Source: Bacteroidales bacterium (GTDB lineage Bacteria; Bacteroidota; Bacteroidia; Bacteroidales; CAIWKO01). From it: DNA of 64,000 bases. Below the pieces are notes generated by a model that was not told where the DNA came from, did not search any database, and was given only the letters and a program-made list of their open reading frames with translations. Positions 3,051 through 56,155 of the stretch are shown piece after piece; position 1 is the first letter of the stretch, and each line of letters begins with the position of its first letter. The stretch spans positions 1 through 64,000 of the forward strand of contig DAOORA010000019.1 in NCBI GenBank assembly GCA_035389045.1, read 5' to 3'. The translations under genes and the position numbers were made by a program.

Positions 3051-3082
3051 CAACGCTAAAAACATCTTCGTGTTTCTCCGTG

Positions 3083-3096
3083 TCCGCCGCGGCGGA
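3083..3096. repeat. REP-like perfect 14-bp palindrome TCCGCCGCGGCGGA
   Basis: Perfect palindrome. Variants at ~8827, ~8934 and 23462-23477. Confidence 0.7.
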
Positions 3097-3164
3097 TCCG
3101 TGCCTCCGTGGTTTTCCTTCCCCGTCACTATCCATAAAAAAGAATTTCACATCCCAAAGTTTTG

Positions 3165-3172
3165 TAATTTTG
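3165..3172 (+). promoter_or_regulatory. Bacteroidota sigma70 -7 element (TAnnTTTG) upstream of moeA
   Basis: TAATTTTG about 18 nt before ATG 3190. Confidence 0.6.
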
Positions 3173-3189
3173 TGCGAAACCCCGGAAAG

Positions 3190-4365
3190 ATGATACCTTT
3201 TGAGATTGCACTGGAAACTGTTTTATCGTGTAAATATGCTACCGGTACCGAAAAAGTACCTCTGACTTCTGCATTGGGCCGTGTACTTGCAGAAGATATC
3301 CGTTCGGATATTGACATGCCTCCTTTCAACAAATCGGCGGTTGATGGTTATGCTTGTTGCCGGCGGGATATTTTTAATGAACTTGAAATAATTGAGGTTA
3401 TTGCTGCCGGTAAAGCGCCGGAGAAGATAATTTCGGATAACCAGTGTGCCAAAATTATGACAGGAGCCATGATACCTCAGGGTGCCGACTGCGTGCTGAT
3501 GGTGGAACATACTGAAAAATCAGGCGAAAACAGTATAAAATTTATAAAGGCCGACACTGCGGCAAATATTGCCTATGCGGCTGAAGATGTGAAAAAAGGC
3601 AGCCTCGTTCTTGAAAAAGGAATCTTAATCAAACCTGAACACATAGCCATTCTGGCTGCTGTGGGTTGCTATGAGACTGAAGTTAGCCTTCAGCCGAAGG
3701 TCAGCATAATTTCCACCGGTGATGAATTAGTGGAACCTTACCAGATTCCGGGAGCTTCGCAGATACGCAACAGCAATTCATGGCAATTGTTGGCTCAGGC
3801 GCAACAGATGCATGTGAAAGTAAAATATGAAGGCATTGCCAGAGATGATGAAGAAATCACCCGCCATATGCTTGAGGATGCCTCTGAAACCAGTGATGTT
3901 GTCCTGCTTACCGGTGGCGTTTCCATGGGCGATTTCGATTTTGTTCCGGAAATGATGATGAAAACCGGCTTTGAGATATTGTTCCGCACCATTGCGATAC
4001 AACCCGGAAAACCTACTGTGTGTGGAAGAAAAGATAATAAAATCTGCTTTGGCCTGCCCGGGAACCCGGTGGCGTCCTTTGTCATTTTTGAATTGTTGGT
4101 CAAGCCCTTGCTTTATAAAATGATGGGCTGTGAATTTTCACCACGGTTACTCCGTATGCCATTTGCACATGAATATAAACGCAGAATATCGGAACGGCTT
4201 TCGGTAATTCCTGTTGTGATCAACAGCGATGGAACGGTTGAATCTGTAAGTTATCATGGTTCCGCACATATACATGCGCTTGCTTATGCAAACGGAATGG
4301 CTTTTATACCCATCGGCAAGGCTGTTGTTGAAAAAGGAGAGTTTATTGATGTTAGATTCATATAA
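3190..4365 (+). CDS. moeA: molybdopterin molybdotransferase MoeA
   Basis: Motifs GRVLAEDI, PPFNKSAVDGYA, IMTGAMIPQGADCV, STGDEL, TGGVSMGDFD, PGKP, GLPGNP. Start moved from 3070 to ATG 3190 because the extension translates repeat DNA. Confidence 0.93.
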   Translation: MIPFEIALETVLSCKYATGTEKVPLTSALGRVLAEDIRSDIDMPPFNKSAVDGYACCRRDIFNELEIIEVIAAGKAPEKIISDNQCAKIMTGAMIPQGADCVLMVEHTEKSGENSIKFIKADTAANIAYAAEDVKKGSLVLEKGILIKPEHIAILAAVGCYETEVSLQPKVSIISTGDELVEPYQIPGASQIRNSNSWQLLAQAQQMHVKVKYEGIARDDEEITRHMLEDASETSDVVLLTGGVSMGDFDFVPEMMMKTGFEILFRTIAIQPGKPTVCGRKDNKICFGLPGNPVASFVIFELLVKPLLYKMMGCEFSPRLLRMPFAHEYKRRISERLSVIPVVINSDGTVESVSYHGSAHIHALAYANGMAFIPIGKAVVEKGEFIDVRFI

Positions 4366-5149
4366 CCGTGAAATAAATTACCTTCGGGTTTCGGTAACCG
4401 ACCGTTGCAACCTGCGATGTATCTATTGCATGCCTGCAGAAGGTATTTCGTTGCAGGATCATAAGGATATATTGTCTTTTGAAGAAATCCTTCAAGTTAT
4501 TGAAATGGCGGTCTCCAAAGGAATCACCAAGGTACGTATTACCGGAGGGGAGCCATTGGTGCGCAGGGGAATTATTTCGCTTATTGAACAGATTTCCATA
4601 ATTCCGGGAATTATTGATTTATCCATGACTACCAACGGTATTCTGCTTGAAGAATATGCCGGACAGCTTGCCAAAGCCGGAATTCAGCGGATTAACATCA
4701 GTCTTGATACGGTGGATCCGCATAAATATGCTGAAATTACCCGTGGAGGTGATATTAAGAGGGTGGTTAGTGGCATTATCGCGGCAAAAAATGCAGGTTT
4801 AAACCCTATAAAAATTAACTGTGTGGTAAAATATTCTTCAAAGGAGCCGGATGCTTTGGGTGTGAAAGATTTTTGCGAAAGAAACGGTTTGCAGGTTCGT
4901 TTTATCCAGATGATGGATCTTCAAAAAGGGCATTTTTCCGTTGTGGACGGTGGTACAGGAGGTGATTGTTCCATTTGCAACCGTCTGCGGTTGACAGCCG
5001 ATGGAAAAATAAAACCCTGCCTGTTCAACGATTTAGAGTTTGATGTGAGGACAATAGGCGCTGAAAATGCTATTTTAGAAGCCATCAAAATCAAACCTGA
5101 ATGTGGGACATTAAGCAAAAATGGTCATTTTAATAATATCGGCGGATGA
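4349..5149 (+). CDS. moaA: GTP 3',8-cyclase MoaA (short, 266 aa)
   Basis: LDSYNREINYLRVSVTDRCNLRCIYC (CxxxCxxC), RITGGEPL, C-terminal CX2CX13C (CSICNRLRLTADGKIKPC), terminal IGG. Start at ATG 4349 overlaps the moeA end. Confidence 0.92.
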   Translation: MLDSYNREINYLRVSVTDRCNLRCIYCMPAEGISLQDHKDILSFEEILQVIEMAVSKGITKVRITGGEPLVRRGIISLIEQISIIPGIIDLSMTTNGILLEEYAGQLAKAGIQRINISLDTVDPHKYAEITRGGDIKRVVSGIIAAKNAGLNPIKINCVVKYSSKEPDALGVKDFCERNGLQVRFIQMMDLQKGHFSVVDGGTGGDCSICNRLRLTADGKIKPCLFNDLEFDVRTIGAENAILEAIKIKPECGTLSKNGHFNNIGG

Positions 5150-5248: not shown

Positions 5249-5290
5249 ACATTTAACAAAAACGGGCACTTTAGTAATATCGGCGGATAA
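5249..5290 (+). pseudogene. displaced duplicate of moaA 3' end (TFNKNGHFSNIGG*)
   Basis: 10/13 aa identical to the moaA tail TLSKNGHFNNIGG* (5108-5149). Its TAA overlaps the NRAMP ATG (TAATG). Confidence 0.8.
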
Positions 5291-6546
5291 TGTGGAAAAA
5301 GCTTTTTGATAAAAAAAATCACAAACCACGTCTTGGCGGATTAGAAATCTTCAAATATATCGGCCCGGGCTTGTTGGTAACCGCCGGATTTATTGATCCG
5401 GGCAACTGGGCTACCAATATTGCCGCAGGCTCCGGATTTGGTTATTCCTTGTTATGGGTGGTTACTCTTTCCACAATTATGTTGATTATCCTTCAGCATA
5501 ATGTGGCGCATCTGGGTATTGCCACCGGCTTATGTCTTTCCGAAGCTACCTCAAAATATACCCCGGGCTGGGTGTCGCGTCCTTCGCTGGTGCTGGCTAT
5601 GCTGGCCTCAGTGAGCACCTCTCTGGCAGTGATATTGGGTGCGGCCATAGCTTTAAAAATGCTTTTTGGTATGCCGATACAGGCCGGAGCCATTATCAGC
5701 GCCGTATTTATCCTGATATTGTTGTTTTCCAACTCGTATAAAAAAATCGAAAAATGGATCATTGCTTTTGTCTCTGTTGTTGGACTTTCGTTTATTTATG
5801 AATTATACCTTATTGATATCGATTGGCAAAATGTTGCTCTAAACTTTGTTAAGCCTGAAATACCCGACCATTCTATTGTATTTATCATGGGGGTGCTGGG
5901 AGCTGTAATTATGCCTCACAATCTGTACCTGCATTCCGAGGTCATTCAAAGCCGGCAGTGGAACCTCCAGGACGATAAGGTTATCAGGAAACAACTGAAA
6001 TATGAGTTTGCGGACACCTTGCTCTCTATGATTATTGGCTGGGCTATCAATTGTGCAATTATTTTGCTTGCCGCATCCACTTTTTTTAAAAACGGAATAG
6101 CGGTCGATGAGCTTGAGCAGGCAAAAAGCATTATGGAGCCTTTGCTGGGCAGCAGTTCTGCTGTAATTTTTGCCATCGCCCTGTTGTTTTCGGGTATTGC
6201 TTCGGGCATCACTTCGGGAATGGCCGGCGGCACTATATTTTCCGGCATCTTTCAGGAGCCTTATGATAGCAAAGACAACCATTCCCGTTTGGGAGTGCTT
6301 ATTTCAATAGTGCTTGCCGTGATTATCATCATGTTTGTGGCCAATCCTTTTATGGCGCTGATCTACTCTCAGATGGCCCTAAGCATTGCCCTGCCGTTCA
6401 CTATTTTTATACAGATTTATCTTACCTCGTCCAAAAAAGTGATGGGGAAATATGCAAACGGATTATTACTGAAAGTGGTGTTGTTTGCCTTAGCGGCTGT
6501 TGTCTCAGGACTGAATGTGTATTTGTTGGTTGAAACCTTATTTTAG
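5290..6546 (+). CDS. mntH: NRAMP family divalent metal transporter (MntH-like)
   Basis: GPGLLVTAGFIDPGNWATN (DPGN motif), GAVIMPHNLYLHS (TM6 motif), about 11 hydrophobic segments. Confidence 0.88.
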   Translation: MWKKLFDKKNHKPRLGGLEIFKYIGPGLLVTAGFIDPGNWATNIAAGSGFGYSLLWVVTLSTIMLIILQHNVAHLGIATGLCLSEATSKYTPGWVSRPSLVLAMLASVSTSLAVILGAAIALKMLFGMPIQAGAIISAVFILILLFSNSYKKIEKWIIAFVSVVGLSFIYELYLIDIDWQNVALNFVKPEIPDHSIVFIMGVLGAVIMPHNLYLHSEVIQSRQWNLQDDKVIRKQLKYEFADTLLSMIIGWAINCAIILLAASTFFKNGIAVDELEQAKSIMEPLLGSSSAVIFAIALLFSGIASGITSGMAGGTIFSGIFQEPYDSKDNHSRLGVLISIVLAVIIIMFVANPFMALIYSQMALSIALPFTIFIQIYLTSSKKVMGKYANGLLLKVVLFALAAVVSGLNVYLLVETLF

Positions 6547-6730: not shown

Positions 6731-6929
6731 TATTGCACTGAAATCTGGTGCTTCAACATGATGTGTATCAGATTGTTTGATGTTGCGTAGTCCGGAGATT
6801 TGACTCAGCCGGGGTTAATACAAATATCGTAATTCTTTTTCGTCCTTCGCTTAAATTCTTTACACCCTTCGAGGTTAAAAAGAGATGGTAATATTAAAAA
6901 TGCTAATTTTGAATATCCAAATTCAAATT

Positions 6930-7376
6930 ATGCCAAAACTTTCCCATACCGATTCCACCGGCAGGGCCAACATGGTGGATGTAGGTCACAAACCCCAGCA
7001 AACCCGTATTGCCAAGGCAAGCGGAATGATTATTTTACATAAGGAAACCCTTAGGCTGATAAAAGACAACGAACTGAAAAAAGGCGATGTCCTCACCGTG
7101 GCAGAAGTTGCCGGCATTCAGGCCGCCAAACAGAATGCCATGCTTATACCACTCTGTCATCCTTTGCTATTGACCAAAATTGATGTAAAATGCACACTGA
7201 AAAAAAATGGCGTTATGGCCGAAAGTCTGGTGAAATGCATCGGGCAGACCGGTGTGGAAATGGAAGCCCTTACAGCCGTGAGTGTGGCTTTGCTGACGGT
7301 GTATGATATGTGCAAAGCCGTGGATAAGACCATGGTAATTTCGGAAGTGCGACTTGTGTGCAAAGAGAAAATTTAA
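6930..7376 (+). CDS. moaC: cyclic pyranopterin monophosphate synthase MoaC
   Basis: LSHTDSTGRANMVDVGHK, KKGDVL, LIPLCHP, TGVEMEALT, YDMCKAVD. TAATTTTG at ~6904 supports start 6930. Confidence 0.95.
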   Translation: MPKLSHTDSTGRANMVDVGHKPQQTRIAKASGMIILHKETLRLIKDNELKKGDVLTVAEVAGIQAAKQNAMLIPLCHPLLLTKIDVKCTLKKNGVMAESLVKCIGQTGVEMEALTAVSVALLTVYDMCKAVDKTMVISEVRLVCKEKI

Positions 7377-7406: not shown

Positions 7407-8339
7407 GTGATGAATATTAAGATAGAATCGGTCAATATTTCTGAAAAAACAGGAGTGATAAAACATCCGGTTGAGAAAATAGTAATTAATAAAACCGGTA
7501 TTGAAAATGATGCCCATTCCGGCGACTGGCACAGGCAGGTGAGTTTGTTGTCGACCGAAAGTATTGCCCAATCAGAGCAAAAAGCAAAGCGAAAGATTAA
7601 CTATGGTGAGTTTGCCGAAAACCTGACCATCTCGGGCATGAACCTGATAGATACCGCTCCTCTCGACAGGTTTATGATTAATGATGTTGAACTGGAGGTT
7701 ACACAGATAGGAAAGAAATGTCACGGTAGTACGTGTGCAATCTTTAATGAAGTGGGCGAGTGCGTGATGCCTAAAGAAGGCATATTTTGTCGGGTGCTGC
7801 GCGGCGGAACCATCATGCCTGGAGACGAAGGCATTTATTACCCCCGTATATTCAGGGTTTGTGTAATCACCCTTAGCGACCGGGCCAGTCAGGGAGTTTA
7901 TGAAGATTTGAGCGGAAAACATATAGCTGATCTTTGTGAACATTTTTTTACTTCCAAAAAACGTAAATATGAAGTTCATAAAACCCTCATCCCTGACAAT
8001 GTTGAACAACTCAGGCAGCTGATCACAGATTCGGTGAATACATACGATATTGTCATTACCACAGGGGGTACGGGTATCGGCCCGAGAGATTTTACGCCCG
8101 ATGTTGTAAAACCCATGCTGGAAAAAGAAATTCCGGGCATTATGGAAATGATTCGGATAAAATATGGACAACAAAAACCAAATGCCTTGGTTAGCAGGGC
8201 TGTGGCAGGAGTTATCGGCAATACACTGGTGTTTACACTGCCCGGCAGCGTTAAAGCCGTGGAAGAATACATGACAGAAATATTCACCATGCTGGAGCAC
8301 CTGATTTATATGCTGCATAGTTTGGATTTTCATGGATAG
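7407..8339 (+). CDS. MOSC domain - MogA/MoaB molybdopterin adenylyltransferase fusion
   Basis: N-half SVNISEKTG, NDAHSG, RQVSLLS, GEFAENL, TQIGKKCH, CVMPKEGIF (MOSC). C-half ITLSDRASQGVYEDLSG, TTGGTGIGPRDFTPD, LPGSVKAV (MogA). Confidence 0.88.
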   Translation: MMNIKIESVNISEKTGVIKHPVEKIVINKTGIENDAHSGDWHRQVSLLSTESIAQSEQKAKRKINYGEFAENLTISGMNLIDTAPLDRFMINDVELEVTQIGKKCHGSTCAIFNEVGECVMPKEGIFCRVLRGGTIMPGDEGIYYPRIFRVCVITLSDRASQGVYEDLSGKHIADLCEHFFTSKKRKYEVHKTLIPDNVEQLRQLITDSVNTYDIVITTGGTGIGPRDFTPDVVKPMLEKEIPGIMEMIRIKYGQQKPNALVSRAVAGVIGNTLVFTLPGSVKAVEEYMTEIFTMLEHLIYMLHSLDFHG

Positions 8340-47200: not shown

Positions 47201-47746
47201 AGGGATGTCGGTTTTGTGCCGCATCAGTTCAAGGTAGAAATCTTCACCAAAAAGATTTTTGAAATCCTGTATTTTCTGCTCTGCTTTTTCAATATCGTTT
47301 TTAAGAATATAATAAGGTATTTCTCCTGCTATGCATGCCGAGGATGCGATCAGTCCTTCGTGATACAGCGACAGTAGTTCCCAGTCGATACGCGGCTTGT
47401 AATAAAAGCCTTCAAGCCATGCCAGCGAAACAAGTCTGCACAGGTTTTTATACCCGGTTTCGTTTTTTGCCAGTAATATCAGGTGAAACCCCGACCTGTC
47501 ATCGGTATCCGATTTGTCTGTACGGCCTTTGGCTGCTACATAAGTCTCACAGCCAAGTATGGGCTTGATTCCAATTGAAGTGGCTTTATTAAAAAATTCT
47601 TTTACGCCGAACATATTTCCATGGTCTGTAATGGCAAGCGACGTCATTCCGAGTTCCTTTGCTTTTGTGATCAGTTTAGTAATATCTGAAGCCCCGTCAA
47701 GAACAGAGTATTGGGTATGGACATGTAAGTGGGTGAAATTTACCAT
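44243..47746 (-). CDS. dnaE: DNA polymerase III alpha subunit
   Basis: HLHVHTQYSVLDG (PHP), GPGRGSAAGS, FERFLNPDRVSMPDMDIDF, KMDFLGL, YAFNKSH. No intein evident. Confidence 0.97.
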   Translation of the reverse strand: MVNFTHLHVHTQYSVLDGASDITKLITKAKELGMTSLAITDHGNMFGVKEFFNKATSIGIKPILGCETYVAAKGRTDKSDTDDRSGFHLILLAKNETGYKNLCRLVSLAWLEGFYYKPRIDWELLSLYHEGLIASSACIAGEIPYYILKNDIEKAEQKIQDFKNLFGEDFYLELMRHKTDIPEIDEDVFAQQQIVNKELIRLSTKYDVKLIASNDVHFINVQDAEAHDHLLCINTGKLLTDTNRLKYTRMEYLKSPDEMMDLFADIPEAIENTNLIAEKIESFNLNKKPILPDFPLPEGFSDAYEYLEYLTYDGAKKRYPEITEVLKERIEFELAVIKKMNFPGYFLIVNDFIKAARDMGVSVGPGRGSAAGSVVAYCLFITDIEPMKYGLLFERFLNPDRVSMPDMDIDFDEDGREKVINWVVNKYGSSRVAQIITFGTMASKMAIRDVARVENLPLSEADKLAKLVPPKVKNLEEAIVASNELKQAKQSANPLIARTIKYAVDLEGSIRHTGIHACGIIIGKDDLIEHIPLCTSKDSDLTVTQYEGSHVESVGLLKMDFLGLKTLSIIKDALENIKFSKGIDIDLNNIPLDDKASYELFSNGNTTAIFQFESDGMKKHLRELKPNHFEDLIAMNALYRPGPMDNIPNYVRRKHGKEQITYDHPLMEESLKDTYGIPVYQEQVMELSRRMGNFSRGQADGLRKAMGKKNIVLMNELHPKFIEGCATNGISETIVNKVWKDWLAFAEYAFNKSHAACYAITAYRMAYLKAHFQNEFMAAVLSRNVSDIDEITFLIDECKKLNIRVLGPDINESQIRFVVNTKGEIRFGLAAIKGLGNAAVDVIISEREKNGTYKNIFDFLNRVNLRTVNKKSIEALAMAGAFDSMDIHRAQFFYKLPNEDITFLEKIIRHIALTQNKQNSMQQSLFGESSETEIPDPELPVCEPWSTIEMLNHEKEVIGFYMSGHPLDNFRIEIRHFTNFTLDKCENLSLFAGRDIRFAGMIIQAEHKINKNNKPFGYFKLEDYSGATRLNLWSENYDKFKHLLEIGKCIFVSGKVDRRGWGDKEKDPNYVIEYEIKIHSIEPLYSLLEKRTKELTLFINLEMVNTEYIERIKQLLKDYPGNVQLKMQVVDEEENITVDMLSRKRKISCEGFLKEIETINGIKYKLN

Positions 47747-47789
47747 GATATGTGGAAATTGAATTGCATGATATGTGGAAATTGAATTG
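47744..47789. repeat. exact 23-bp tandem duplication spanning the dnaE start codon
   Basis: catgatatgtggaaattgaattg x2 (47744-47766 and 47767-47789). Confidence 0.92.
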
Positions 47790-48198
47790 ATTTTTTTCTT
47801 TTGTAAAATTACTGATTTTGACGGTCAAAAATGGCATTGTTCATAAATTTTAAATCTATTGATATCATGTAAGTTGTAAGTTAAAAACAGCACACATATG
47901 TTGATGACAGTTTTTATGATTAAATACTGAACAATTTGAAAGAACCTATGTGTCATGTTCAAATAATAAATTATAGTTATCTCATGGTCAGTTTATTAAA
48001 TGTTCATCTACGGCTTATATATTAGACTTATAAACAATGTGTAATTATGATTTATAAAATATTAGGCTGTACTGGGGTTTCATTCATCCGCTCATTGATA
48101 ATAAAACCTTCATTATAGCTGAATTGTGCTGAAAATCAAAGTTTTTAAACTTGTTTAAGGTAATAAAAAATTCCTTCTTGTTGTAATAATATTTTGTC

Positions 48199-48206
48199 TA
48201 TTTTTG
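48199..48206 (+). promoter_or_regulatory. -7 element upstream of efp
   Basis: TATTTTTG about 28 nt before ATG 48234. Confidence 0.6.
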
Positions 48207-48233
48207 CACGAAATTTTGAAAAAAGGAATGCTT

Positions 48234-48800
48234 ATGGCAACTACGGCAGATATAAGAAATGGTTTATGCATAGAGTTTAACAACGATTTATTTGTTGTTG
48301 TTGAATTTCAGCATGTTAAACCAGGAAAAGGCGGGGCTTTCGTCAGGACCAAACTCAAAAGTCTTACAACAGGAAAAGTAATCAGCAATACCTTCAACTC
48401 GGGTACAAAGATTGATGTTACCCGTGTGGAAAGACGTCCTTACCAGTTTCTGTATAAGGATGATAGTGGGTATAACTTTATGCATGTCGAAACTTTCGAA
48501 CAGGTATTGATCATGGAAGAAATGATTGATGCGCATGATTTATTGAAAGAGGGACAAATGGTGGAGATCATGTTCCATGCCGATACCGAACGTCCGCTAT
48601 CATGCGAACTCCCTGCCTTTGTAGAACTCGAAGTTGTTTACACGGAACCCGGCATAAGAGGTGATACAGCAACCAATGCACTGAAACATGCGACCATGGA
48701 AACAGGTGCAATTGTAGATGTGCCGTTATTTATTAATATCGGCGAAAAAATCAGAATTGACACAAGAAATCATTCTTATTACGAACGTGTTAAATCATAA
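48234..48800 (+). CDS. efp: elongation factor P
   Basis: [48 protein letters not shown]. Confidence 0.97.
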
Positions 48801-48826
48801 GCCGGTATTCACAGATAACTTTAATT

Positions 48827-49747
48827 ATGAAATTTCAAGATACTTACACATTAAAAGATTTTGCTGAGTTTTTAAACGCAAAGTATATTGGTTGCGATGA
48901 CCATAAAATTACCGGTATTAACGAAGTTCATATGGTCGAGGAAGGCGACATTACCTTTGTCGATTTTTATAAGTATTATGATAAGGCATTAAACTCAAAA
49001 GCCTCTACCGTCATAATAAATAAAAAGGTAACACCACCGGATGGCAAAGCGCTAATAATTTCTGAGGATCCTTTCCGGGACTTCAACAAAATCGCCACCC
49101 GTTTCCGGAAGTTTGAACCCTGTGCGAATCCTATCAGCGATTCGGCGGAAATAGGGGAAGGCACAATTTTGCAGCCAGGCGTGTTTATCGGGAACCATGT
49201 TAAAATTGGTAAAAACTGCATTATTCATTCCAACGTCAGCATTTACGATTATTCCGTTATTGGCGACAATGTCATCATCCAGTCGAATGCGGTTATCGGA
49301 GGAGATGCCTATTATTTCAAACGTCGCCCCGATCATTACGATAAAATGGAATCATGCGGAAGGACCATCATACATGACGACGTAGAGATAGGCGCTCTGT
49401 GTGCTGTGGACAAGGGTGTATCCGGAGATACTATCGTTGGCCAGGGCACAAAGATCGACAACCATGTTCAGATCGGACATGATACACATATTGGTAAAAA
49501 TTGTCTCATTGGTGCACATTCAGCCATAGCAGGAGTTACTGTCATTGAAGATGATGTTTGTATATGGGCACAGGTTATGATAAATAAAGACATAACAATT
49601 GGTAAAGGAGCTGTGCTTCTTGCAACGTCCGCCGTAGACAAATCTATGGAAGGCGGTAAGGTTTATTTTGGATCCCCGGCCATTGAAGCACGAAAAAAAT
49701 GGCGTGAGATAATAGCTTTGAAAAAATTAGCTGAAAATTATAAGTGA
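48827..49747 (+). CDS. LpxD-like UDP-3-O-acyl-glucosamine N-acyltransferase (hexapeptide repeats)
   Basis: LpxD N-terminal domain, left-handed beta-helix repeats, GTKIDNHVQIGHD; follows efp as is common in Bacteroidota. Confidence 0.82.
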   Translation: MKFQDTYTLKDFAEFLNAKYIGCDDHKITGINEVHMVEEGDITFVDFYKYYDKALNSKASTVIINKKVTPPDGKALIISEDPFRDFNKIATRFRKFEPCANPISDSAEIGEGTILQPGVFIGNHVKIGKNCIIHSNVSIYDYSVIGDNVIIQSNAVIGGDAYYFKRRPDHYDKMESCGRTIIHDDVEIGALCAVDKGVSGDTIVGQGTKIDNHVQIGHDTHIGKNCLIGAHSAIAGVTVIEDDVCIWAQVMINKDITIGKGAVLLATSAVDKSMEGGKVYFGSPAIEARKKWREIIALKKLAENYK

Positions 49748-49804
49748 TTTTCAGCAAAAACTACCGTTTATTTTTCGTATTGTCGTTCAGAAACATTGTA
49801 AAGC

Positions 49805-50185
49805 ATGGGGGATAAAACATTTGATAAATATTCCAATATCCGCATAAATTACAAATTGTGGATGTCTTCTCAAACCGGTGATGCTATCATTGACGATGAT
49901 AAATGGAAAATGCTCATTTCTATACAGGAACTTGGTTCACTGATGGCAGCTGCCAATAATGAAAAGATAAGTTACCGCAAAGCCTGGGGTGATATTCGTA
50001 AAATGGAAGCTATACTTGGGTTCCGGCTGGTCGAAAAACACCGCGGGGGCAAGTCTGGTGGTATTACCATACTTACAAATGAGGGCGTCAGGCTTATTAA
50101 CTCGTATGTGAGATTTCGCGCTGAATTTCAGCAAAATGTTGATGAAACCATAAAAAAATTTAAAAAAGAGCTGAAACAAGTTTAG
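49805..50185 (+). CDS. ModE N-terminal-type winged-HTH regulator (no TOBE/molybdate-binding domain)
   Basis: KLWM, ISIQELGSLMAAA...ISYRKAWGDIRKME...LVEKHRGGKSGGITILTNEG; only 126 aa. Confidence 0.82.
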   Translation: MGDKTFDKYSNIRINYKLWMSSQTGDAIIDDDKWKMLISIQELGSLMAAANNEKISYRKAWGDIRKMEAILGFRLVEKHRGGKSGGITILTNEGVRLINSYVRFRAEFQQNVDETIKKFKKELKQV

Positions 50186-50192
50186 TTTCCCA

Positions 50193-50930
50193 ATGAGGAT
50201 TTTTGTGGCCATCGACGATACAGATAATTCCGAAAGCAAGGGTACGGGTTTCAGGGCCAGAGAACTGGCAGTCCTTATTCAAAAAAAAAATCTGGGATTG
50301 CTTTATGGAGTAACACGCCACCAGCTTTTTGTACATGAGAAGATTCCATATACATCTCATAACAGTTCAGCATGTATAGTTTTGATTGCTGATGAAAAAA
50401 ACCTTCGGAGCATTATTGATGTTTCAGCACAATATCTTATTGAAAATGCTGCCGATGGTTCTGATGCCGGATTATGTGTCTGTTCCGAAAAAAATATCAC
50501 GGCGGAACTGATCTCCTATGCAAAAAAAGCCAAAACAGAAGTCTTGACTATGGATACAGCCATAGAATTGGCTCAGAAACATCAGATTTTTCTGGAGGGT
50601 TTTACGGGAACCAGACAGGGCGTTATAGGATCATTAGCGGCGATCGGACTGCATGCGGAAGGCAACGACGGCCGTTTTCTGCAGGTAAGGGGTATGAGAG
50701 AACTTTTTGGTGTACACACGGTTAAATACATCCTTGAATACACCGGCGTGGAAAAAATCATGTCCACAGAAAACAAAATATTGTTTAATTTCGAAAAAAT
50801 TTTTCTTACCGAATGGTGGCGGCCTGTGCTTAATAATAAACAGGCAGTACTATATGTTGAAACAAAAAATGCATGTAATTATGAATACAGGGTTATCTCA
50901 AAAGAGCATATCAAAAACATATCCGACTAA
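50193..50930 (+). CDS. TiaS N-terminal-domain-like protein (DDTD motif; no OB-fold or Zn ribbon)
   Basis: MRIFVAIDDTDNSESKGTG, RHQL..HEKIPYTSHNSSAC, GSDAGLC, GTRQGVIGSLAAIG; 245 aa. Confidence 0.72.
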   Translation: MRIFVAIDDTDNSESKGTGFRARELAVLIQKKNLGLLYGVTRHQLFVHEKIPYTSHNSSACIVLIADEKNLRSIIDVSAQYLIENAADGSDAGLCVCSEKNITAELISYAKKAKTEVLTMDTAIELAQKHQIFLEGFTGTRQGVIGSLAAIGLHAEGNDGRFLQVRGMRELFGVHTVKYILEYTGVEKIMSTENKILFNFEKIFLTEWWRPVLNNKQAVLYVETKNACNYEYRVISKEHIKNISD

Positions 50931-51447
50931 GGCTTTATTAACCTTACTTGAGGTGTTGCTCCTGATAAGTATAGGAGCCATCGGGGTTCTGATTCACGCT
51001 AAATTCCGTTTTCCACTGAGATTGCCCGGGCACTGGGGATTGGTTTACATGGCGTTGATTTTTTCCGGGCGTTTGTTTTCAAAAAAACCTTATGCATCAA
51101 GCCTGTCAAGCCTGGGCGCTGTTGCTATGTTATTACTGCCCCTTGGATTTAAAGACCCTTTTATGCCTGTCCTGTATATCTTTCCGGGGTTTATTACGGA
51201 CGTTTTCTATAATATCTTTAAAAACGGAAAAAAACAGATAATTCTTATTGCCCTTATTTCCGGAGTGGCTTATATGTCTATACCTTTGTCGCGTTTATTT
51301 TTAACTTTGTTTACAGGAGTCATATATGGATCTTTCAGTACCGGATATATTTATCCTTTCATTATGCATTTTTTGTTCGGTGCATGTGGCGGCCTGACCG
51401 GTCTTGGGATATACTCCGTCATTAGGAAAATTCTTAAACGATTATAA
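50881..51447 (+). CDS. putative ECF-type S-component-like membrane protein
   Basis: About 188 aa, about 6 hydrophobic helices, PLRLPGHWGLVYMA after TM1, HFLFGACGGLTG in the last TM. Start at 50881 assumed; 50707 would overlap the upstream gene too far. Confidence 0.55.
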   Translation: MNTGLSQKSISKTYPTKALLTLLEVLLLISIGAIGVLIHAKFRFPLRLPGHWGLVYMALIFSGRLFSKKPYASSLSSLGAVAMLLLPLGFKDPFMPVLYIFPGFITDVFYNIFKNGKKQIILIALISGVAYMSIPLSRLFLTLFTGVIYGSFSTGYIYPFIMHFLFGACGGLTGLGIYSVIRKILKRL

Positions 51448-51450
51448 TTA

Positions 51451-52341
51451 ATGATAAACCAATCGTTTTTTTTCAAATTAGAGATACTCGTTTTCATTGT
51501 TGTTTTTTTCTCTTCATGTACCAAAAAAGATACAGACCCGCCTGTTATTACATTTGATGCTTCTGGCGGGCTGGTTTTCAAAGACACGGTATTTCCGGCC
51601 GGAACAAACTTCAAGGTGAGCCTTATTGCCGAAATGGGAGGGTCAAACATTACCAATTTTGTCATCAAAAATTATCACGACGGACAGGTCACCGATTATT
51701 TTGATACAGGCGTGAATAGCGAAACTATTAATATTACAAAGATACTGACCAAAAATGTTTTTGATACAGAAAAGTGGACTTTTATGGTCATCGATAAAAA
51801 TGGTAAAAATGCGTCTGTTTCATTTAATGTATATCGGGATACAAGCGCTGGATATCAATTGGTGAAAGTTTTTCCGGGCGTGATTCTTGGTGCACAGAAA
51901 AACCCTGCAAAAGGAAGCTTTATGAGCCTGAAAAGTGGCAACACATGGTTTCAGCCTGATGCATTCAACATCCAGGATTCAATAGAATTGCTGTATTATT
52001 TTGACTCAACCGGCGATGCCAATACTATTGCTTCTGCCGGTGCTAACATTGCCACGTTTATTTACCCTGGAAGTACAAGCCCTTTATACTGGTCAATCCG
52101 GCATGAAACCCGCTTTTATAAGACTGCATATTCAAATGTTGATTTTAATAATGTACAAAACGACAGCCTGTTGCTTGTTGCTTATGATGAAATCAATGGT
52201 AAGCGTAAGGCCAAAAATCTTGCCGCCGGCGATGTGTATTCATTTAAGACAGCTCATGCACGGTACGGTATGTTTTTAGTGGAACAGGTTCTTGGCGCCG
52301 ACTCCGGAATGGTGCAATTCACCATAAAAATCCAGAAATGA
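51451..52341 (+). CDS. outer-membrane lipoprotein, likely surface exposed
   Basis: Lipobox FFSS-C followed by TKKDTD (charged, export-signal-like), beta-rich. Stop overlaps the receptor start (ATGA). Confidence 0.72.
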   Translation: MINQSFFFKLEILVFIVVFFSSCTKKDTDPPVITFDASGGLVFKDTVFPAGTNFKVSLIAEMGGSNITNFVIKNYHDGQVTDYFDTGVNSETINITKILTKNVFDTEKWTFMVIDKNGKNASVSFNVYRDTSAGYQLVKVFPGVILGAQKNPAKGSFMSLKSGNTWFQPDAFNIQDSIELLYYFDSTGDANTIASAGANIATFIYPGSTSPLYWSIRHETRFYKTAYSNVDFNNVQNDSLLLVAYDEINGKRKAKNLAAGDVYSFKTAHARYGMFLVEQVLGADSGMVQFTIKIQK

Positions 52342-54635
52342 TGAAAAAAATTATTGTTTTTAGCATCATTGTGTTGTGGATTATTCAGGTATCTGCCCAG
52401 GGTAAAATAAGCGGTCTTGTAATGGATGAACAGACCGGAAATATACTCCCGGTTGCTACCGTAAAAATCCTTGAGTTAAATATGGTGACTACCTCAGATA
52501 AAGAAGGCGCTTATGTATTTAAATATATCCAACCAGGGAAATATCATCTCGCCTTCACCTATGTGGGCTATAAAAACGATACCGTTCAGGTCACCATGGG
52601 GAAAAAAAGTGACCGATATATTATTACAAAACTTACTAAGGCGGTTATCGATATCTCTGAGGTGACTGTCATTGCATCAAGAACCGAAAAAGGGTTCCGG
52701 GTTCCTGCAAGTATGGATGTGATCACCAAAAAACAGTTGCAGGAGTTGCCTGTTGTTTCTGTGGACGATGCATTAGTTTTAGTTTCCGGATTGAATGCTT
52801 CAAGAAATTATGGGATTTATAATAAAACAGGTGATGTAACCTTGCGCGGGCTTAACCGCAACATTTACAGCCTGATACTGCTCGATGGCGTGCCTTACAG
52901 CCTTTTCGACGGCAGCGCCAACCTGTGGAATAAACTGTATACCGAAAAAATTGATGACATCCAAATCGTAAAAGGGGCAAATTCGGCCTTGTATGGTAGC
53001 AATGCCATGTCAGGTGTAATTTGCATAAATACATACAAACCCGAAAAATCATTTGAAGCCAGGGCTAAGGTTTTTTTCGGGACTTATAATACGCAGGGCG
53101 GGAATCTTGTTGTTGGTGGCAACAGATCCAAAAATGACAGAGGGTTTTACTGGAGTGTCAATGGTTTTTACAGGAAAAGCGGAGGCTATATTATGGCGCC
53201 TGATTCGCTCAGAACACCTTATGATGTGAAAACCTACGTGATGGAATACAACGCATTGGCAAAAACCGGTTATCAGTTTGGTAAAGGTCATAACATCGAA
53301 GTTGAATATGAGTACTCATCCGATAAACGCGGTACCGGTAGTAAATTTTTCGAAGAACAGGGAAGTTATAACCATTACAGAACTCACTTTACCAGATTAT
53401 CATACAATCGTGTGCATGACAACCACGAGATTCATGCCAATGTTTTTTTTAAAAAGGAAGGGTATATAAAACAAAATGAATCCATCAAGAAAAACACCGG
53501 ATTGTACACATTTTACAATACGGACACCGATACACATGACGAAGGGCTTTGGTTCAGTTATACCACCAGGACAATAAAAAATAATGTGCTTACTGTTGGA
53601 ACAGATGTTAAAAGCGGTGCTGTTTATTCAAATGATATTTATCATACTTCTGTTGATACCATTGAAAATAATGGGAAAATGGATTTTTTCGGCGTTTTTA
53701 TTCAGGACCAGTTATCCCTGCTGAAAGACAAATTTGTGATTTTGGCCGCACTGCGTGCCGATCTGGTACACTTCTACGGAGGGATTTTCCATATATATTC
53801 ACCAACGCTTGCTACATCTTTTTTGTATGATTACCAGGGAGATTTTAAAGCAAAATCGTGGTTTGCATTGAGTCCGAAAGCAGGGTTTAAATATATTTTT
53901 AACGAAAACTTTAATATCTATGCGTTGTATTCCTGGGGTTTCAGGCCGCCACAGATCAACGACCTTTCGCGAACCGGAGATGTAAACAAAGGTTTCAAAC
54001 TTGCCAATCCCGGCCTGAAACCTGAACGTATTCAGAGTGTGGAACTGGGTGCAGGATTACGTCCCGCAAAATGGTTGCTGATTCAGCCCATAGTGTTTTA
54101 TTCAAAAGGTATAGATTTTCAGTATTTTGTTGCAACTGGCGATTCGGTATATACTTCGGGGGTGAATATGAAACCTGTCATAAAAAGACAAAATGTCGGA
54201 AGAGTTAATATCGCAGGATTTGAACTTAAAACCAGTATCAGTTTTACAAAAAACATGAAACTAACAACTTGTTATTCCTATAATTATTCGGTTATCGGAA
54301 AATACCTGCCGGGCACGGTTGTTACAACCGATCTCACGGGCAGGGACCTGATCGAAGTTCCCAGAAACCTTTTCAGTGGCATTTATACCTGGAATAACAG
54401 AATTATAACGGCAACTCTTACAGCTAAGTTCATTGATAAAGAATGGGTCGACGATGAAAATACTATCAGACTTGACTCGTATTGGACTTTCGATGCCAGG
54501 ATACAGCGTATGTTTTATAACAAAATTAATTTTGCGCTGACCTGTCAGAATATTTTAAACAAACGCTTTGTGGACAGCAAGGGCTACCTTTCGCCAGGAA
54601 GATACTTTTTGTTTGAATTGTCTTTCAACTGGTAA
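52338..54635 (+). CDS. TonB-dependent receptor (non-SusC; BtuB/heme-receptor-like architecture)
   Basis: Signal peptide, CarboxypepD_reg-like N-domain (GKISGLVMDEQTG..YVGY), plug (EVTVIASR, LRGL, LLDGVP, IVKGANSALYGSNAMSGVI), ANPGLKPE, C-terminal PGRYFLFELSFNW. Confidence 0.9.
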   Translation: MMKKIIVFSIIVLWIIQVSAQGKISGLVMDEQTGNILPVATVKILELNMVTTSDKEGAYVFKYIQPGKYHLAFTYVGYKNDTVQVTMGKKSDRYIITKLTKAVIDISEVTVIASRTEKGFRVPASMDVITKKQLQELPVVSVDDALVLVSGLNASRNYGIYNKTGDVTLRGLNRNIYSLILLDGVPYSLFDGSANLWNKLYTEKIDDIQIVKGANSALYGSNAMSGVICINTYKPEKSFEARAKVFFGTYNTQGGNLVVGGNRSKNDRGFYWSVNGFYRKSGGYIMAPDSLRTPYDVKTYVMEYNALAKTGYQFGKGHNIEVEYEYSSDKRGTGSKFFEEQGSYNHYRTHFTRLSYNRVHDNHEIHANVFFKKEGYIKQNESIKKNTGLYTFYNTDTDTHDEGLWFSYTTRTIKNNVLTVGTDVKSGAVYSNDIYHTSVDTIENNGKMDFFGVFIQDQLSLLKDKFVILAALRADLVHFYGGIFHIYSPTLATSFLYDYQGDFKAKSWFALSPKAGFKYIFNENFNIYALYSWGFRPPQINDLSRTGDVNKGFKLANPGLKPERIQSVELGAGLRPAKWLLIQPIVFYSKGIDFQYFVATGDSVYTSGVNMKPVIKRQNVGRVNIAGFELKTSISFTKNMKLTTCYSYNYSVIGKYLPGTVVTTDLTGRDLIEVPRNLFSGIYTWNNRIITATLTAKFIDKEWVDDENTIRLDSYWTFDARIQRMFYNKINFALTCQNILNKRFVDSKGYLSPGRYFLFELSFNW

Positions 54636-54730
54636 GGAGTACATTCCAATCAATCATTTTTCAAATTCTTATATTTATTTTTCCTTATATTAATTAATGA
54701 GTTTTTATATGAAAATTGTCTATTTTTTAT

Positions 54731-54738
54731 TAATTTTG
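54731..54738 (+). promoter_or_regulatory. -7 element upstream of lpdA
   Basis: TAATTTTG about 26 nt before ATG 54764; suggests lpdA is transcribed separately from the upstream operon. Confidence 0.6.
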
Positions 54739-54763
54739 CACTACAAATAACAAGAAGTAGTAT

Positions 54764-56155
54764 ATGAATTTCGATATTATTATAATAGGTTCAGGACCGG
54801 GTGGTTATGTGGCTGGCATAAGAGCGTCGCAATTAGGTTTTTCCGTTGCTATGGTTGAACAGGCCGAGGTAGGCGGTATATGTCTAAATTGGGGCTGCAT
54901 TCCTACCAAAGCGCTTCTGAAATCTGCCCAGGTTTATAATTATGCAAAACATGCCGCTGAATATGGAATTACGCTTACAGGCGATGTTGCTTTTGATTTT
55001 CAGACTATCGTCAGACGCAGCCGTGATGTTGCGGAAAATATGAGCAAGGGTGTTCAGTTTTTGTTCAGAAAAAATAAAATCGAAGTAATTAAAGGCCATG
55101 GAAAGATTTTGCCGGGCGGAAAAGTGGAAGTTACCGGCGGTGAAGGCCAAATATCGGTTTATGAGGCAAGACATATTATTCTTGCTACAGGATCACGTGC
55201 ACGGGAACTTCCCAATCTGAAAATCGACGGCAAAAAAATTATTGGATACCGCCAGGCAATGACCTTGGAAAAACAACCACAATCATTGGTGGTAATAGGT
55301 TCCGGGGCTATCGGTTCGGAGTTTGCACACTTTTATAATACACTTGGCACCAAAGTGACACTGGTAGAGATGTTGCCCAATGTAGTTCCTGTCGAAGATG
55401 AGGATGTGTCAAAACAACTGGAACGTTCTTTCAAAAAAAGCGGAATGAAAGTTTATACTGCTTCTGTCGTTGAAAGTGTTGATACCAGTGGCGAAATTTG
55501 TAAGGTTTCGATAAAAACCCCAAAAAATGTTGAGGTGGTCGAAGCGGAAGTTGTTCTTTCTGCTGTTGGCGTAAGCACCAACCTTGAAAATTTAGGATTG
55601 GAAGAAACCGGCATACTGACCGAAAGAGGAAAAGTCCTGGTGGATGAGTACTACCGGACCAACCAGGAAGGGTATTATGCCATCGGCGATATTGTAAAGG
55701 GGCCTGCCCTGGCTCATGTGGCTTCGCGCGAAGGTATTGTCTGTGTTGAAAAAATTGCCGGGAAAGACGTGGCGCCTGTGGATTATAGTAATATTCCGGG
55801 CTGTACATATACACATCCGGAGGTTGCCTCAGTGGGATATACCGAAAAAGCAGCCATCGAAGCAGGGTTGACCATAAAAACCGGAAAGTTCCCTTTTACT
55901 GCCAGTGGAAAAGCCAATTCTTCGGGGTTCAGGGACGGTTTTATCAAAGTGATTTTTGATGCTGATTCCGGCAAATGGCTCGGAGCTCATTTTATCGGCG
56001 AGAATGTTACCGAAATGATAGCCGAAGTAGTAGTGGCGCGTAATATAGGCGCTACGGCTCACGATATTCTCACGGCAGTGCATCCGCACCCCACCATGTC
56101 CGAAGCCGTTATGGAAGCCGTGGCAGCGGCATACGGTGAGGTGATTCATATATAA
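54764..56155 (+). CDS. lpdA: dihydrolipoyl dehydrogenase
   Basis: IGSGPGGYVA, GGICLNWGCIPTKALL, GSGAIGSE, HPHPTMSE. Confidence 0.96.
   Translation: MNFDIIIIGSGPGGYVAGIRASQLGFSVAMVEQAEVGGICLNWGCIPTKALLKSAQVYNYAKHAAEYGITLTGDVAFDFQTIVRRSRDVAENMSKGVQFLFRKNKIEVIKGHGKILPGGKVEVTGGEGQISVYEARHIILATGSRARELPNLKIDGKKIIGYRQAMTLEKQPQSLVVIGSGAIGSEFAHFYNTLGTKVTLVEMLPNVVPVEDEDVSKQLERSFKKSGMKVYTASVVESVDTSGEICKVSIKTPKNVEVVEAEVVLSAVGVSTNLENLGLEETGILTERGKVLVDEYYRTNQEGYYAIGDIVKGPALAHVASREGIVCVEKIAGKDVAPVDYSNIPGCTYTHPEVASVGYTEKAAIEAGLTIKTGKFPFTASGKANSSGFRDGFIKVIFDADSGKWLGAHFIGENVTEMIAEVVVARNIGATAHDILTAVHPHPTMSEAVMEAVAAAYGEVIHI

Follow-up and report, generated by a model that had tools for sequence, protein, structure and literature searches.

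A bacterial protein family with the catalytic core of the RNA kinase TiaS in gene clusters for tungsten and molybdenum uptake

In archaea, TiaS, the tRNA(Ile2) 2-agmatinylcytidine synthetase, phosphorylates the C2 oxygen of C34, a reaction in which D8, D9, D11 and T18 have catalytic roles and T18 is autophosphorylated. The enzyme is about 420 aa long, and its TiaS-type kinase domain (TCKD) is followed by a ferredoxin-like domain and by OB-fold and zinc-ribbon domains that serve tRNA binding. The kinase domain has hitherto been regarded as peculiar to AUA decoding in archaea. We analyze P0001, a TCKD-like protein of 245 aa encoded in a 64,000-nt stretch of DNA from a Bacteroidales bacterium (GenBank assembly GCA_035389045.1, contig DAOORA010000019.1, positions 1 to 64,000; hereafter the window). 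P0001 probably handles imported metal rather than tRNA, because genes of its kind are found in uptake clusters for tungsten or molybdenum (W/Mo) beside a small membrane transporter protein.

Apart from TiaS, three described proteins invite comparison. The Pyrococcus furiosus protein of PDB entry 3u02 (252 aa) is, like P0001, a short TCKD protein of similar length; it differs in being archaeal, in its identity of 23-24% and in aligning to residues 1-158 only. It was deposited as 'tRNA modifier TiaS' with the molecule name 'putative transcription-associated protein TFIIS', and we know of no tested function for it. Methanogenesis marker protein 11 shares the TCKD-like half, whereas its N-terminal 133 model positions have no counterpart in P0001; a search of the full-text literature for its name found no paper. 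MoSto, an ATP-dependent cytoplasmic handler of molybdate and tungstate, offers a functional analogy in its ATP-driven treatment of oxyanions, but its fold is that of the amino-acid-kinase family, unrelated to TCKD, and it forms a cage storing polyoxometalates.

The TCKD-like protein P0001 and its family

The gene and its two domains are laid out as follows.

50193..50930, + strand: P0001, TCKD-like protein; open reading frame (ORF) with ATG start, 245 aa
50193..50666, + strand: TiaS-type kinase domain, residues 1-158, predicted from an AlphaFold2 model and structure matches; D8, D9, T10, D11, T18, R42-H43-Q44, IPYTSHNSS, GVIGSLAAIG
50667..50927, + strand: family-specific C-terminal domain, residues 159-245; beta-rich, with conserved W208-x-R210-P211

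The translation contains D8, D9, T10, D11 and T18, the motif IPYTSHN at residues 51-57 and GVIGSLAAIG at 143-152, just as an earlier note on this DNA had read them in the 245-aa protein. In a phmmer search against PDB chains, the TiaS entries 3au7, 4rvz and 3amt matched residues 1-157 (E 6.5e-9 to 7.4e-9), with D8, D9, T10, D11 and T18 aligned to the same TiaS positions, and a profile of 28 homologues reached E 3.5e-10 to TiaS and E 1.2e-7 to 3u02. The NCBIfam model of TiaS (NF040849) matched at E 1.9e-11, placing only residues 1-158 on model positions 1-157 of 422; at 43.2 bits against an equivalog cut-off of 600, this gave no full-length match above the cut-off. Pfam TiaS_TCKD (PF22641) scored 26.3 bits, just under its gathering cut-off of 27, with model positions 1-59 of 156 matched, and the same label is precomputed on many close homologues of P0001. 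The best NCBIfam match was methanogenesis marker protein 11 (TIGR03280; E 3.4e-14, 52.6 bits, cut-off 255.8), spanning residues 2-156 and model positions 134-285 of 292. The likeness of P0001 to TiaS is far above chance. P0001 is not a TiaS orthologue, because three defining features of TiaS were tested for and not found; it appears to be a functional variant of the TCKD fold.

An AlphaFold2 model of P0001 built from the 28-sequence alignment had a mean pLDDT of 91.8 and a pTM of 0.89. An exhaustive VIA-align comparison over 48,161 chains ranked TiaS first (3amt_A, Z 21.4, root-mean-square deviation (rmsd) 1.9 Å over 150 aligned residues, 27% identity) and 3u02_A second (Z 16.2, rmsd 2.9 Å, 144 residues), with the next match at Z 8.2. 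This superposition bears out the TiaS-like fold that the earlier note had proposed. Foldseek against the PDB returned nine matches at E ≤ 0.001, all of them TiaS or 3u02 chains, the best being 5xob (E 3.3e-11, probability 1.00, 157 columns, rmsd 2.2 Å). In the model, residues 1-158 match the TiaS-TCKD fold unambiguously. Chains of 6-hydroxymethyl-dihydropterin pyrophosphokinase (HPPK), an enzyme that makes AMP from ATP, also came up as weak matches to residues 1-158; their scores (7mpy_B Z 7.0, 3mcm_A 6.8, 1cbk_B 6.7) lie within the chance range of VIA-align.

The earlier note had described a kinase-domain-only enzyme, a description that fails in view of the conserved extra domain of 87 residues that P0001 carries after the TCKD. 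Folded alone, residues 159-245 gave a pLDDT of 88.0, and a tryptophan, an arginine and a proline of this domain are invariant in a 21-sequence alignment (A3). Its fold found no convincing relative: the best VIA-align score among 48,161 chains was Z 2.5 (ubiquitin-like entries, noise) and Foldseek gave no match at E ≤ 0.001, although absence from either list excludes no fold. No OB fold, zinc ribbon or ferredoxin-like domain was detected in these searches of residues 159-245. Since the protein ends at 245 aa and this domain holds a single cysteine, it cannot be a TiaS-type zinc ribbon. The suggestion that P0001 lacks tRNA-binding domains thus stands for the zinc ribbon; for the OB fold, none was found in a fold search that excludes none.

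P0001 shares with TiaS (3amt, 3amu, 3au7, 4rvz, 5xob) the TCKD itself, D8, D9, T10, D11, T18, R42, the IPY...N loop and the G-x-I-G-x-L-A-A-x-G helix. It differs in its length (245 against about 420 aa) and its unlike 87-residue C-terminal domain, and its family has further invariant positions of its own: N12, G17, G19, H43, Q44, T54, S55, S58, G89-S90-D91 and G157-N158-D159-G160-R161. The settings differ as well, P0001 being bacterial, encoded in a genome that has TilS and placed in a W/Mo transport context instead of a translation role. The earlier note had stated that TilS takes the place of TiaS in bacteria and had named a genome without tilS in its refuting case; the genome of the window carries tilS (TIGR02432 188.2 bits, cut-off 93.6; 444-aa ORF, G000:C6:362-904), so P0001 is not needed for AUA decoding.

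A word-indexed search found 2937 proteins at E ≤ 0.001 among 3284 candidates, 134-429 aa in length. Most relatives are about 245 aa long, come from metagenome-assembled genomes of Bacteroidota and are named 'hypothetical'. Two of them, P0026 and P0105 (64% and 49% identical to P0001), bear the NCBI name 'ABC transporter substrate-binding protein', and two others are named 'TiaS' by JGI; neither name fits. Clustered at 50% identity, an exhaustive search gave 839 clusters at E ≤ 0.001, 559 at E ≤ 1e-10 and 131 at E ≤ 1e-30, and in a scan of species genomes at least 559 stretches, among the 600 pattern matches listed, encode a TCKD-like relative. The family is patchily distributed: in a same-class sample of 301 evenly drawn genomes, the gene occurred in one, namely the window's own. 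Across 135 full-length sequences that represent clusters at 50% identity or below, the motif is nearly invariant (D8 in 133, D9 in 129, T10 in 134, D11 in 132, T18 in 132 with Ser in the other three), as are R42 (135), H43 (132), Q44 (130), N57 (135) and G146 (135). The DDTD/T18 motif is under selection, and the pattern fits an active enzyme with an acceptor pocket unlike that of TiaS.

Longer relatives were sought among 1807 candidates. The one longer fused form, the metagenome protein P0270 (1053 aa; HTH_1, a TCKD-like part, Plug and TonB-receptor labels), was set aside, as it probably represents several operon genes joined through frameshifts or in gene calling. In P0126 and P0262, the N-terminal extensions are unannotated and gave no Pfam match. 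No fusion of the TCKD-like protein to its membrane partner was seen in this search.

A sister subfamily of about 290-316 aa (P0164, P0218, P0240, P0247, P0251, P0255 and P0258; loci L084-L163) carries an added tail of the pattern C..F..DV.EE...SC.NC.YRRWT...F.C. In P0164, this tail has four invariant cysteines (C278, C297, C300, C312) and an invariant R303-R304 pair. Judged from this pattern, the Cys4 tail could bind a metal or form a zinc ribbon.

Gene neighborhoods of the family

In the window, the P0001 gene is the second of five genes. The other four are listed below.

49805..50185, + strand: helix-turn-helix (HTH) regulator of the ModE N-terminal type (ModE-N), 126 aa, without a Mop/TOBE sensor domain (TIGR00637 ModE_repress 78.2 bits, cut-off 98.5, E 3.7e-22; Pfam HTH_1 30 bits)
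50881..51447, + strand: membrane protein resembling the S component of an energy-coupling factor (ECF) transporter (hereafter S-like), 188 aa; presumed start at the ATG at 50881; predicted-structure matches
51451..52341, + strand: lipoprotein of an unnamed Bacteroidota family, 296 aa, putatively at the surface or in the periplasm; hydrophobic N-terminus that ends in ...FFSSC
52338..54635, + strand: TonB-dependent outer-membrane receptor, 765 aa (Pfam TonB_dep_Rec_b-barrel 113.3, Plug 72.9, CarbopepD_reg_2 63.3 bits)

All five genes are co-directional and tightly packed, with successive gaps or overlaps of 8, -50, 3 and -4 nt, which agrees with the earlier placement of P0001 inside a transport operon. 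The regulator gene comes first, at a distance of 8 nt from the TCKD-like gene, the S-like gene overlaps the end of the latter by 50 nt, and the receptor gene overlaps the lipoprotein gene by 4 nt. The first transmembrane helix of the S-like protein starts where the TCKD-like gene ends; its N-terminal tail is therefore encoded inside the overlap. The operon holds a receptor and no ABC genes.

In an Atlas search comparing model with model, the predicted structure of the S-like protein gave TM-scores of 0.78 to a PF09819 (ABC_cobalt) cluster, 0.62 to QueT and 0.60 to MptD, so its predicted membrane fold is that of an S component. It is thus similar in predicted structure to the ECF S components CbrT/PF09819, QueT and MptD, and a homologue follows EcfA and CbiQ/EcfT in four loci; it differs from them in having no Pfam or NCBIfam match, in motifs of its own (R-x-P-L-x-L-P-G-H-H-G, L-G-F-K-D-P and an invariant D107) and in that no EcfT was found in the window's genome. 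A complex prediction of the TCKD-like and S-like proteins (alignments A1 and A2) scored 0.00, a value uninformative in either direction. For the lipoprotein, the Atlas returned only unnamed Bacteroidota clusters.

Searches for regulatory elements yielded little. Rfam, including the Moco riboswitch model, gave no match in 12 loci at gathering scores and none in window positions 47500-55000 at E ≤ 1. A sigma-70 promoter scan was uninformative (21 sites against 16.8 ± 3.7 in shuffles), and none of nine terminator-like sites (4.6 ± 2.1 in shuffles) was convincingly placed between the operon genes. Near-identical DNA was found in activated-sludge and digester runs. Contigs from two metatranscriptome libraries, belonging to two studies, are at least 99% identical to portions of the operon. 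They cover 14 and 10 of 30 bins, the empty bins carrying no information, and two of them bridge the junction of the ModE-like and TCKD-like genes (X3 record 9, 49700-50268; X6 record 23, 50133-50290); as DNA may be present in RNA libraries, these junction contigs are only a weak hint of transcription.

Neighborhoods were compared in 81 loci, that is 80 fetched loci and the window, in which ORFs were called and clustered by BLAST and the cluster representatives annotated. Greedy selection retained the TCKD-like ORF in 74 loci; in the other seven, longer overlapping ORFs displaced it. Judged by record titles, the loci belong to Bacteroidota, Chloroflexota, Gamma- and Alphaproteobacteria, Planctomycetota and Acidobacteriota. 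In 69 of the 81, the S-like gene comes directly after the TCKD-like one, and the maximal ORFs of the two overlap in 57 of 68 pairs, by 50 nt in 17. Having this overlapping partner, P0001 is not the orphan that had been supposed. A TonB-dependent receptor cluster occurs in 60 loci, the lipoprotein family (cluster 3) in 48, and either a TonB receptor or parts of an ABC importer in 71. At least one cluster linked to W/Mo is present in 51 loci: ModE-N in 29, where it lies upstream of the TCKD-like gene, an ArsR-type HTH joined to a periplasmic-binding-protein-like (PBP_like) domain in 10, TupA-like proteins in 11 (236.6 bits, the best match, below the cut-off of 400), WtpA in nine (375.8 bits, cut-off 355), aldehyde:ferredoxin oxidoreductase (AOR) and MoeA in eight each, MoaA in seven, ThiF/MoeB-like proteins in six, and NarJ/TorD-like proteins and Mo-bisPGD enzymes in four each.

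Gene order varies with the phylum. Bacteroidota show ModE-N, TCKD, S-like, lipoprotein and receptor, sometimes followed by a protein with a type IX secretion (T9SS) tail, MoeA and MoaA, and sometimes preceded by AOR. In Chloroflexota, the order is HTH-PBP regulator, small lipoprotein, TCKD, S-like, TupA, permease and ATPase, and in Gammaproteobacteria the TCKD/S-like pair adjoins a TonB-dependent receptor, a Mo-bisPGD enzyme, a NarJ-like chaperone and cytochrome b. The clearest single case of a tungsten context is a Bacteroidales chromosome record (L164), where ModE-N, WtpA (360.2 bits, cut-off 355), TCKD-like, S-like, lipoprotein, receptor, a further lipoprotein, a T9SS-tail protein, a second receptor, two unnamed ORFs, WtpB (270.2 bits) and WtpC (264.3 bits) are encoded co-directionally, with an overlap of 4 nt between wtpA and the TCKD-like gene.

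Context of the Cys4-tailed subfamily was taken from metagenome contigs (37 loci of 5 kb or more). A Peripla_BP_2 gene lies directly upstream of the TCKD-like gene in nine of them; its product matches 4ovk (E 8.8e-31) and HI_1472 (E 7.7e-23), the latter being the molybdate/tungstate binder MolA. A permease of the BtuC/FecCD type is present in seven loci and an ABC ATPase in 20. Four loci have the genes for EcfA, CbiQ/EcfT (50.2 bits, cut-off 25), the S-like protein and the TCKD-like protein one after another, often with ExbB, ExbD and TonB behind them. Five loci hold a MoSto homologue (E 6.8e-55 to MoSto beta, 2ogx_B, and 2.8e-47 to alpha) and three an HTH+PBP_like regulator. Taken together, a MolA-like, MoSto-like or HTH-PBP gene occurs in 17 of the 37 and some importer part in 25. 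The MoSto-like genes beside the TCKD-like gene (L120:2744-3553, minus strand, and four other metagenome loci) are usually accompanied by a conserved unnamed ORF of 95 aa.

Two recurrent secreted proteins were also observed. Cluster 7 (L040:5492-6004, L047:545-1009, L050:5373-5825) is an unnamed lipoprotein of 150-170 aa with the motif LDFNN-G, whose gene precedes the TCKD-like one in Chloroflexota and Planctomycetota, and cluster 22 (L024:11326-12381) is an unnamed secreted protein of about 350 aa adjoining the receptor in Bacteroidota. Both might bind W/Mo outside the cytoplasm. Two further clusters (9 and 36) were dropped as spurious, being Arg/Pro-rich antisense ORFs in high-GC loci.

Tungsten and molybdenum genes in the window's genome

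The genome has a second tungstate operon, which is devoid of the TCKD/S-like pair, and the window itself holds a group of cofactor genes.

G000:C1:142000-153806: second tungstate operon (L083); WtpA, lipoprotein paralogue, 468-aa T9SS-tail protein, paralogue of the TonB-dependent receptor, unnamed 357-aa secreted protein, WtpB, WtpC
Window 3070-4365: MoeA
Window 4256-5149: MoaA
Window 5290-6546: NRAMP/MntH-type metal transporter
Window 6885-7376: MoaC
Window 7407-8339: fusion of MOSC and MoaB/MogA

WtpA of the second operon scores 297.4 bits with TIGR03730 (cut-off 242.75). As paralogues of the receptor and lipoprotein lie inside this wtpABC operon, the receptor-lipoprotein module is tied to tungstate uptake independently of P0001. 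Our literature searches turned up no paper on a tungstate receptor of the outer membrane. The genome also encodes two AOR-family proteins and two Mo/W-bisPGD enzymes, one of the latter with an in-frame TGA: the gene at G000:C4:39884-41164 has a single such codon in a 909-aa frame and possibly encodes a selenocysteine enzyme of the formate dehydrogenase type. The genome, 96.3% complete, gave no match to CbiQ/EcfT (PF02361); of five other carrier genomes searched for EcfT, three have it and in two, both reached through loci with 'chromosome' in the record title, it was not found.

Proposed role and its alternatives

The explanation we favor, at a probability of roughly 45%, is that P0001 is a cytoplasmic ATP-dependent enzyme that captures or activates imported W/Mo species. 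For ATP use, cargo, chemistry and the hand-over to MoeA or a store, we infer the following course. P0001 and the S-like protein would be translated together as part of an operon for the acquisition of tungsten (or molybdenum). The TonB receptor would let a W/Mo species pass the outer membrane and the S-like protein would carry it across the inner one, the latter step being taken in other lineages by a MolBCA-like or ECF importer. On the cytoplasmic side, the TCKD-like enzyme would take the cargo, most likely tungstate or molybdate itself, and ATP bound at the site of D8/D9/D11-Mg2+ and T18 would, by analogy with TiaS, activate or trap it on an oxygen atom. Uptake would thereby be made irreversible, and the metal would be readied for hand-over to MoeA or a MoSto-type store.

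A role after import, rather than in energizing the S-like protein, is argued for by the four classes of importers that accompany the TCKD-like gene (TonB receptor with S-like protein, Tup/Wtp type I ABC, MolBCA-like type II ABC and complete ECF); the constant element is W/Mo import together with the TCKD-like gene, and not one type of motor. Capture or activation of an oxyanion was chosen because the neighbors are oxyanion binders, stores and regulators, and because invariant loops rich in Ser, Thr, Asn, His and Asp (YTSHNSS, GSD-G, GNDGR) would be expected around an oxyanion. The chemistry may be a phosphoryl or adenylyl transfer to an oxo group, by analogy with the phosphorylation of the C34 oxygen by TiaS. 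In a more specific form, which we regard as speculative and doubtful, the protein would be an ATP-dependent, oxometalate-activating enzyme that forms either phosphoryl- or adenylyl-tungstate or an intermediate linked to Thr18. Placed on the cytoplasmic side of a tungstate channel of the S-component type, it would act between import and MoeA insertion or MoSto deposition, and the TiaS 'RNA kinase' domain would be one branch of a wider family with bacterial members acting on metal oxyanions.

Several observations weigh against capture or activation of W/Mo species. No W/Mo-annotated neighbor lies within 6 kb in 30 of the 81 loci, most of which have the receptor-lipoprotein module, and seven of the 37 Cys4 loci lack any importer, MoSto-like or HTH+PBP_like gene. 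Some positions are less well conserved among the 135 representatives (C61 in 112, C95 in 108, K114 in 88). Phosphoryl or adenylyl anhydrides of tungstate should, going by general chemistry, be very labile, and we know of no ECF S component for an oxyanion. Finally, a WtpB- or ModB-type permease was found in 5/5 genomes searched, namely that of the window and those of four carriers, and in some cases within the same operon; such parallel importers of plain tungstate would make a second route redundant, and the cargo may therefore be another W/Mo species or an organic molecule. The same finding weakened the idea that the TCKD/S-like pair replaces an ABC importer.

An organic cargo is the content of one alternative, which we consider unlikely though worth keeping in view: a pterin or cofactor precursor (dephospho-molybdopterin, cyclic pyranopterin monophosphate, breakdown products of the molybdenum or tungsten cofactor) or a W/Mo-metallophore complex would be imported by the receptor and the S-like protein, and the TCKD-like protein would serve as a salvage kinase, an adenylyltransferase or a ligand modifier that releases the metal. 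Vitamins and chelates are the typical cargo of S components and of TonB receptors that have surface lipoproteins, the S-like protein resembles the PF09819, MptD and QueT clusters, and a different cargo would remove the redundancy with WtpABC and TupABC, which are encoded in parallel and even in the same operon. The fold likeness to HPPK (Z 6.7-7.0) points the same way at noise level, its scores lying within the chance range. The direct neighbors, however, are WtpA, TupA, MolA-like, MoSto-like and ModE genes and not pterin enzymes, no genes of metallophore biosynthesis were seen among the recurrent clusters, and salvage is not required in a genome with MoaA, MoaC, MoeA and MoaB. It appears improbable that the TCKD-like protein is instead the motor of a two-part importer, attached to the S-like protein on its cytoplasmic face and driving it with ATP in place of EcfA/EcfT. 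This would suit the frequent overlap of the two ORFs (57 of 68 pairs), a window operon with a receptor and without ABC genes, and the negative EcfT searches in the 96.3% complete genome and in two of five other carriers; yet EcfT is present in the remaining three, four sister-subfamily loci keep the TCKD-like gene even with EcfA and EcfT genes ahead of the S-like one, and in nine loci a MolBCA-like importer precedes the TCKD-like gene, which has no S-like gene next to it. The TCKD fold has, moreover, no known motor function.

A regulatory or sensing role seems very unlikely. Here, the protein would gate the S-like protein as a switch dependent on ATP and W/Mo, or would act as co-sensor to the ModE-type regulator, whose HTH-only product (126 aa) has no molybdate-binding domains of its own and is encoded 8 nt upstream; autophosphorylation of T18, as in TiaS, could act as the switch. 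In Chloroflexota, however, the TCKD-like/S-like pair persists beside a regulator equipped with a PBP-like sensor domain, 52 of the 81 loci lack a ModE-N gene, and the near-invariance of the whole catalytic motif suggests catalysis. Modification of RNA as by TiaS (at C34 of tRNA-Ile2 or another cytidine), with an incidental transport context, deserves hardly any credence. Fold and catalytic motif are the same as in TiaS, and the Cys4 tail of the sister subfamily could be a zinc ribbon. Against this stand the presence of TilS, the restriction of the match to residues 1-158 (43.2 bits, cut-off 600), the failure to find an OB fold or zinc ribbon in a protein whose C-terminal domain has one cysteine, a W/Mo transport context conserved across phyla, and an occurrence in 1/301 sampled genomes of the class, unfit for a core translation function.

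That the protein acts on an imported small molecule and not on tRNA, as the earlier note had suggested, remains the best reading given fold, TilS and operon; the context points to W/Mo and not to the nucleosides or corrinoids among the candidates it had named, while a pterin is possible. No paper that we found links tungsten or molybdenum to methanogenesis marker 11 or to TiaS-like, TCKD or DUF1743 proteins. Recent work has described a TOBE-type tungsten store, Tub (PMC11980592), and a tungsten-specific maturation pathway of MoeA1, MobB and FdhD (PMC13197769); the TCKD-like family is not mentioned in the abstracts and outlines of these two articles. How imported tungstate is handed over to the cofactor machinery, and how tungsten and molybdenum are discriminated in the cell, is described as poorly understood (PMC13197769).

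The family described here is a large bacterial one that combines the catalytic core of TiaS with consistent wiring to genes for W/Mo uptake, storage and cofactor synthesis. If the TCKD-like protein does handle imported W/Mo, it would be a new component of the hand-over pathway of these metals, and its membrane partner would be the first candidate for a W/Mo transporter of the ECF-S type. A function would then also be at hand for TCKD-only proteins, including the solved structure 3u02 and methanogenesis marker 11. The finding may further bear on the tungsten-dependent metabolism of AOR and formate dehydrogenase enzymes in anaerobic digesters and sludge, the habitats in which near-identical DNA occurs.

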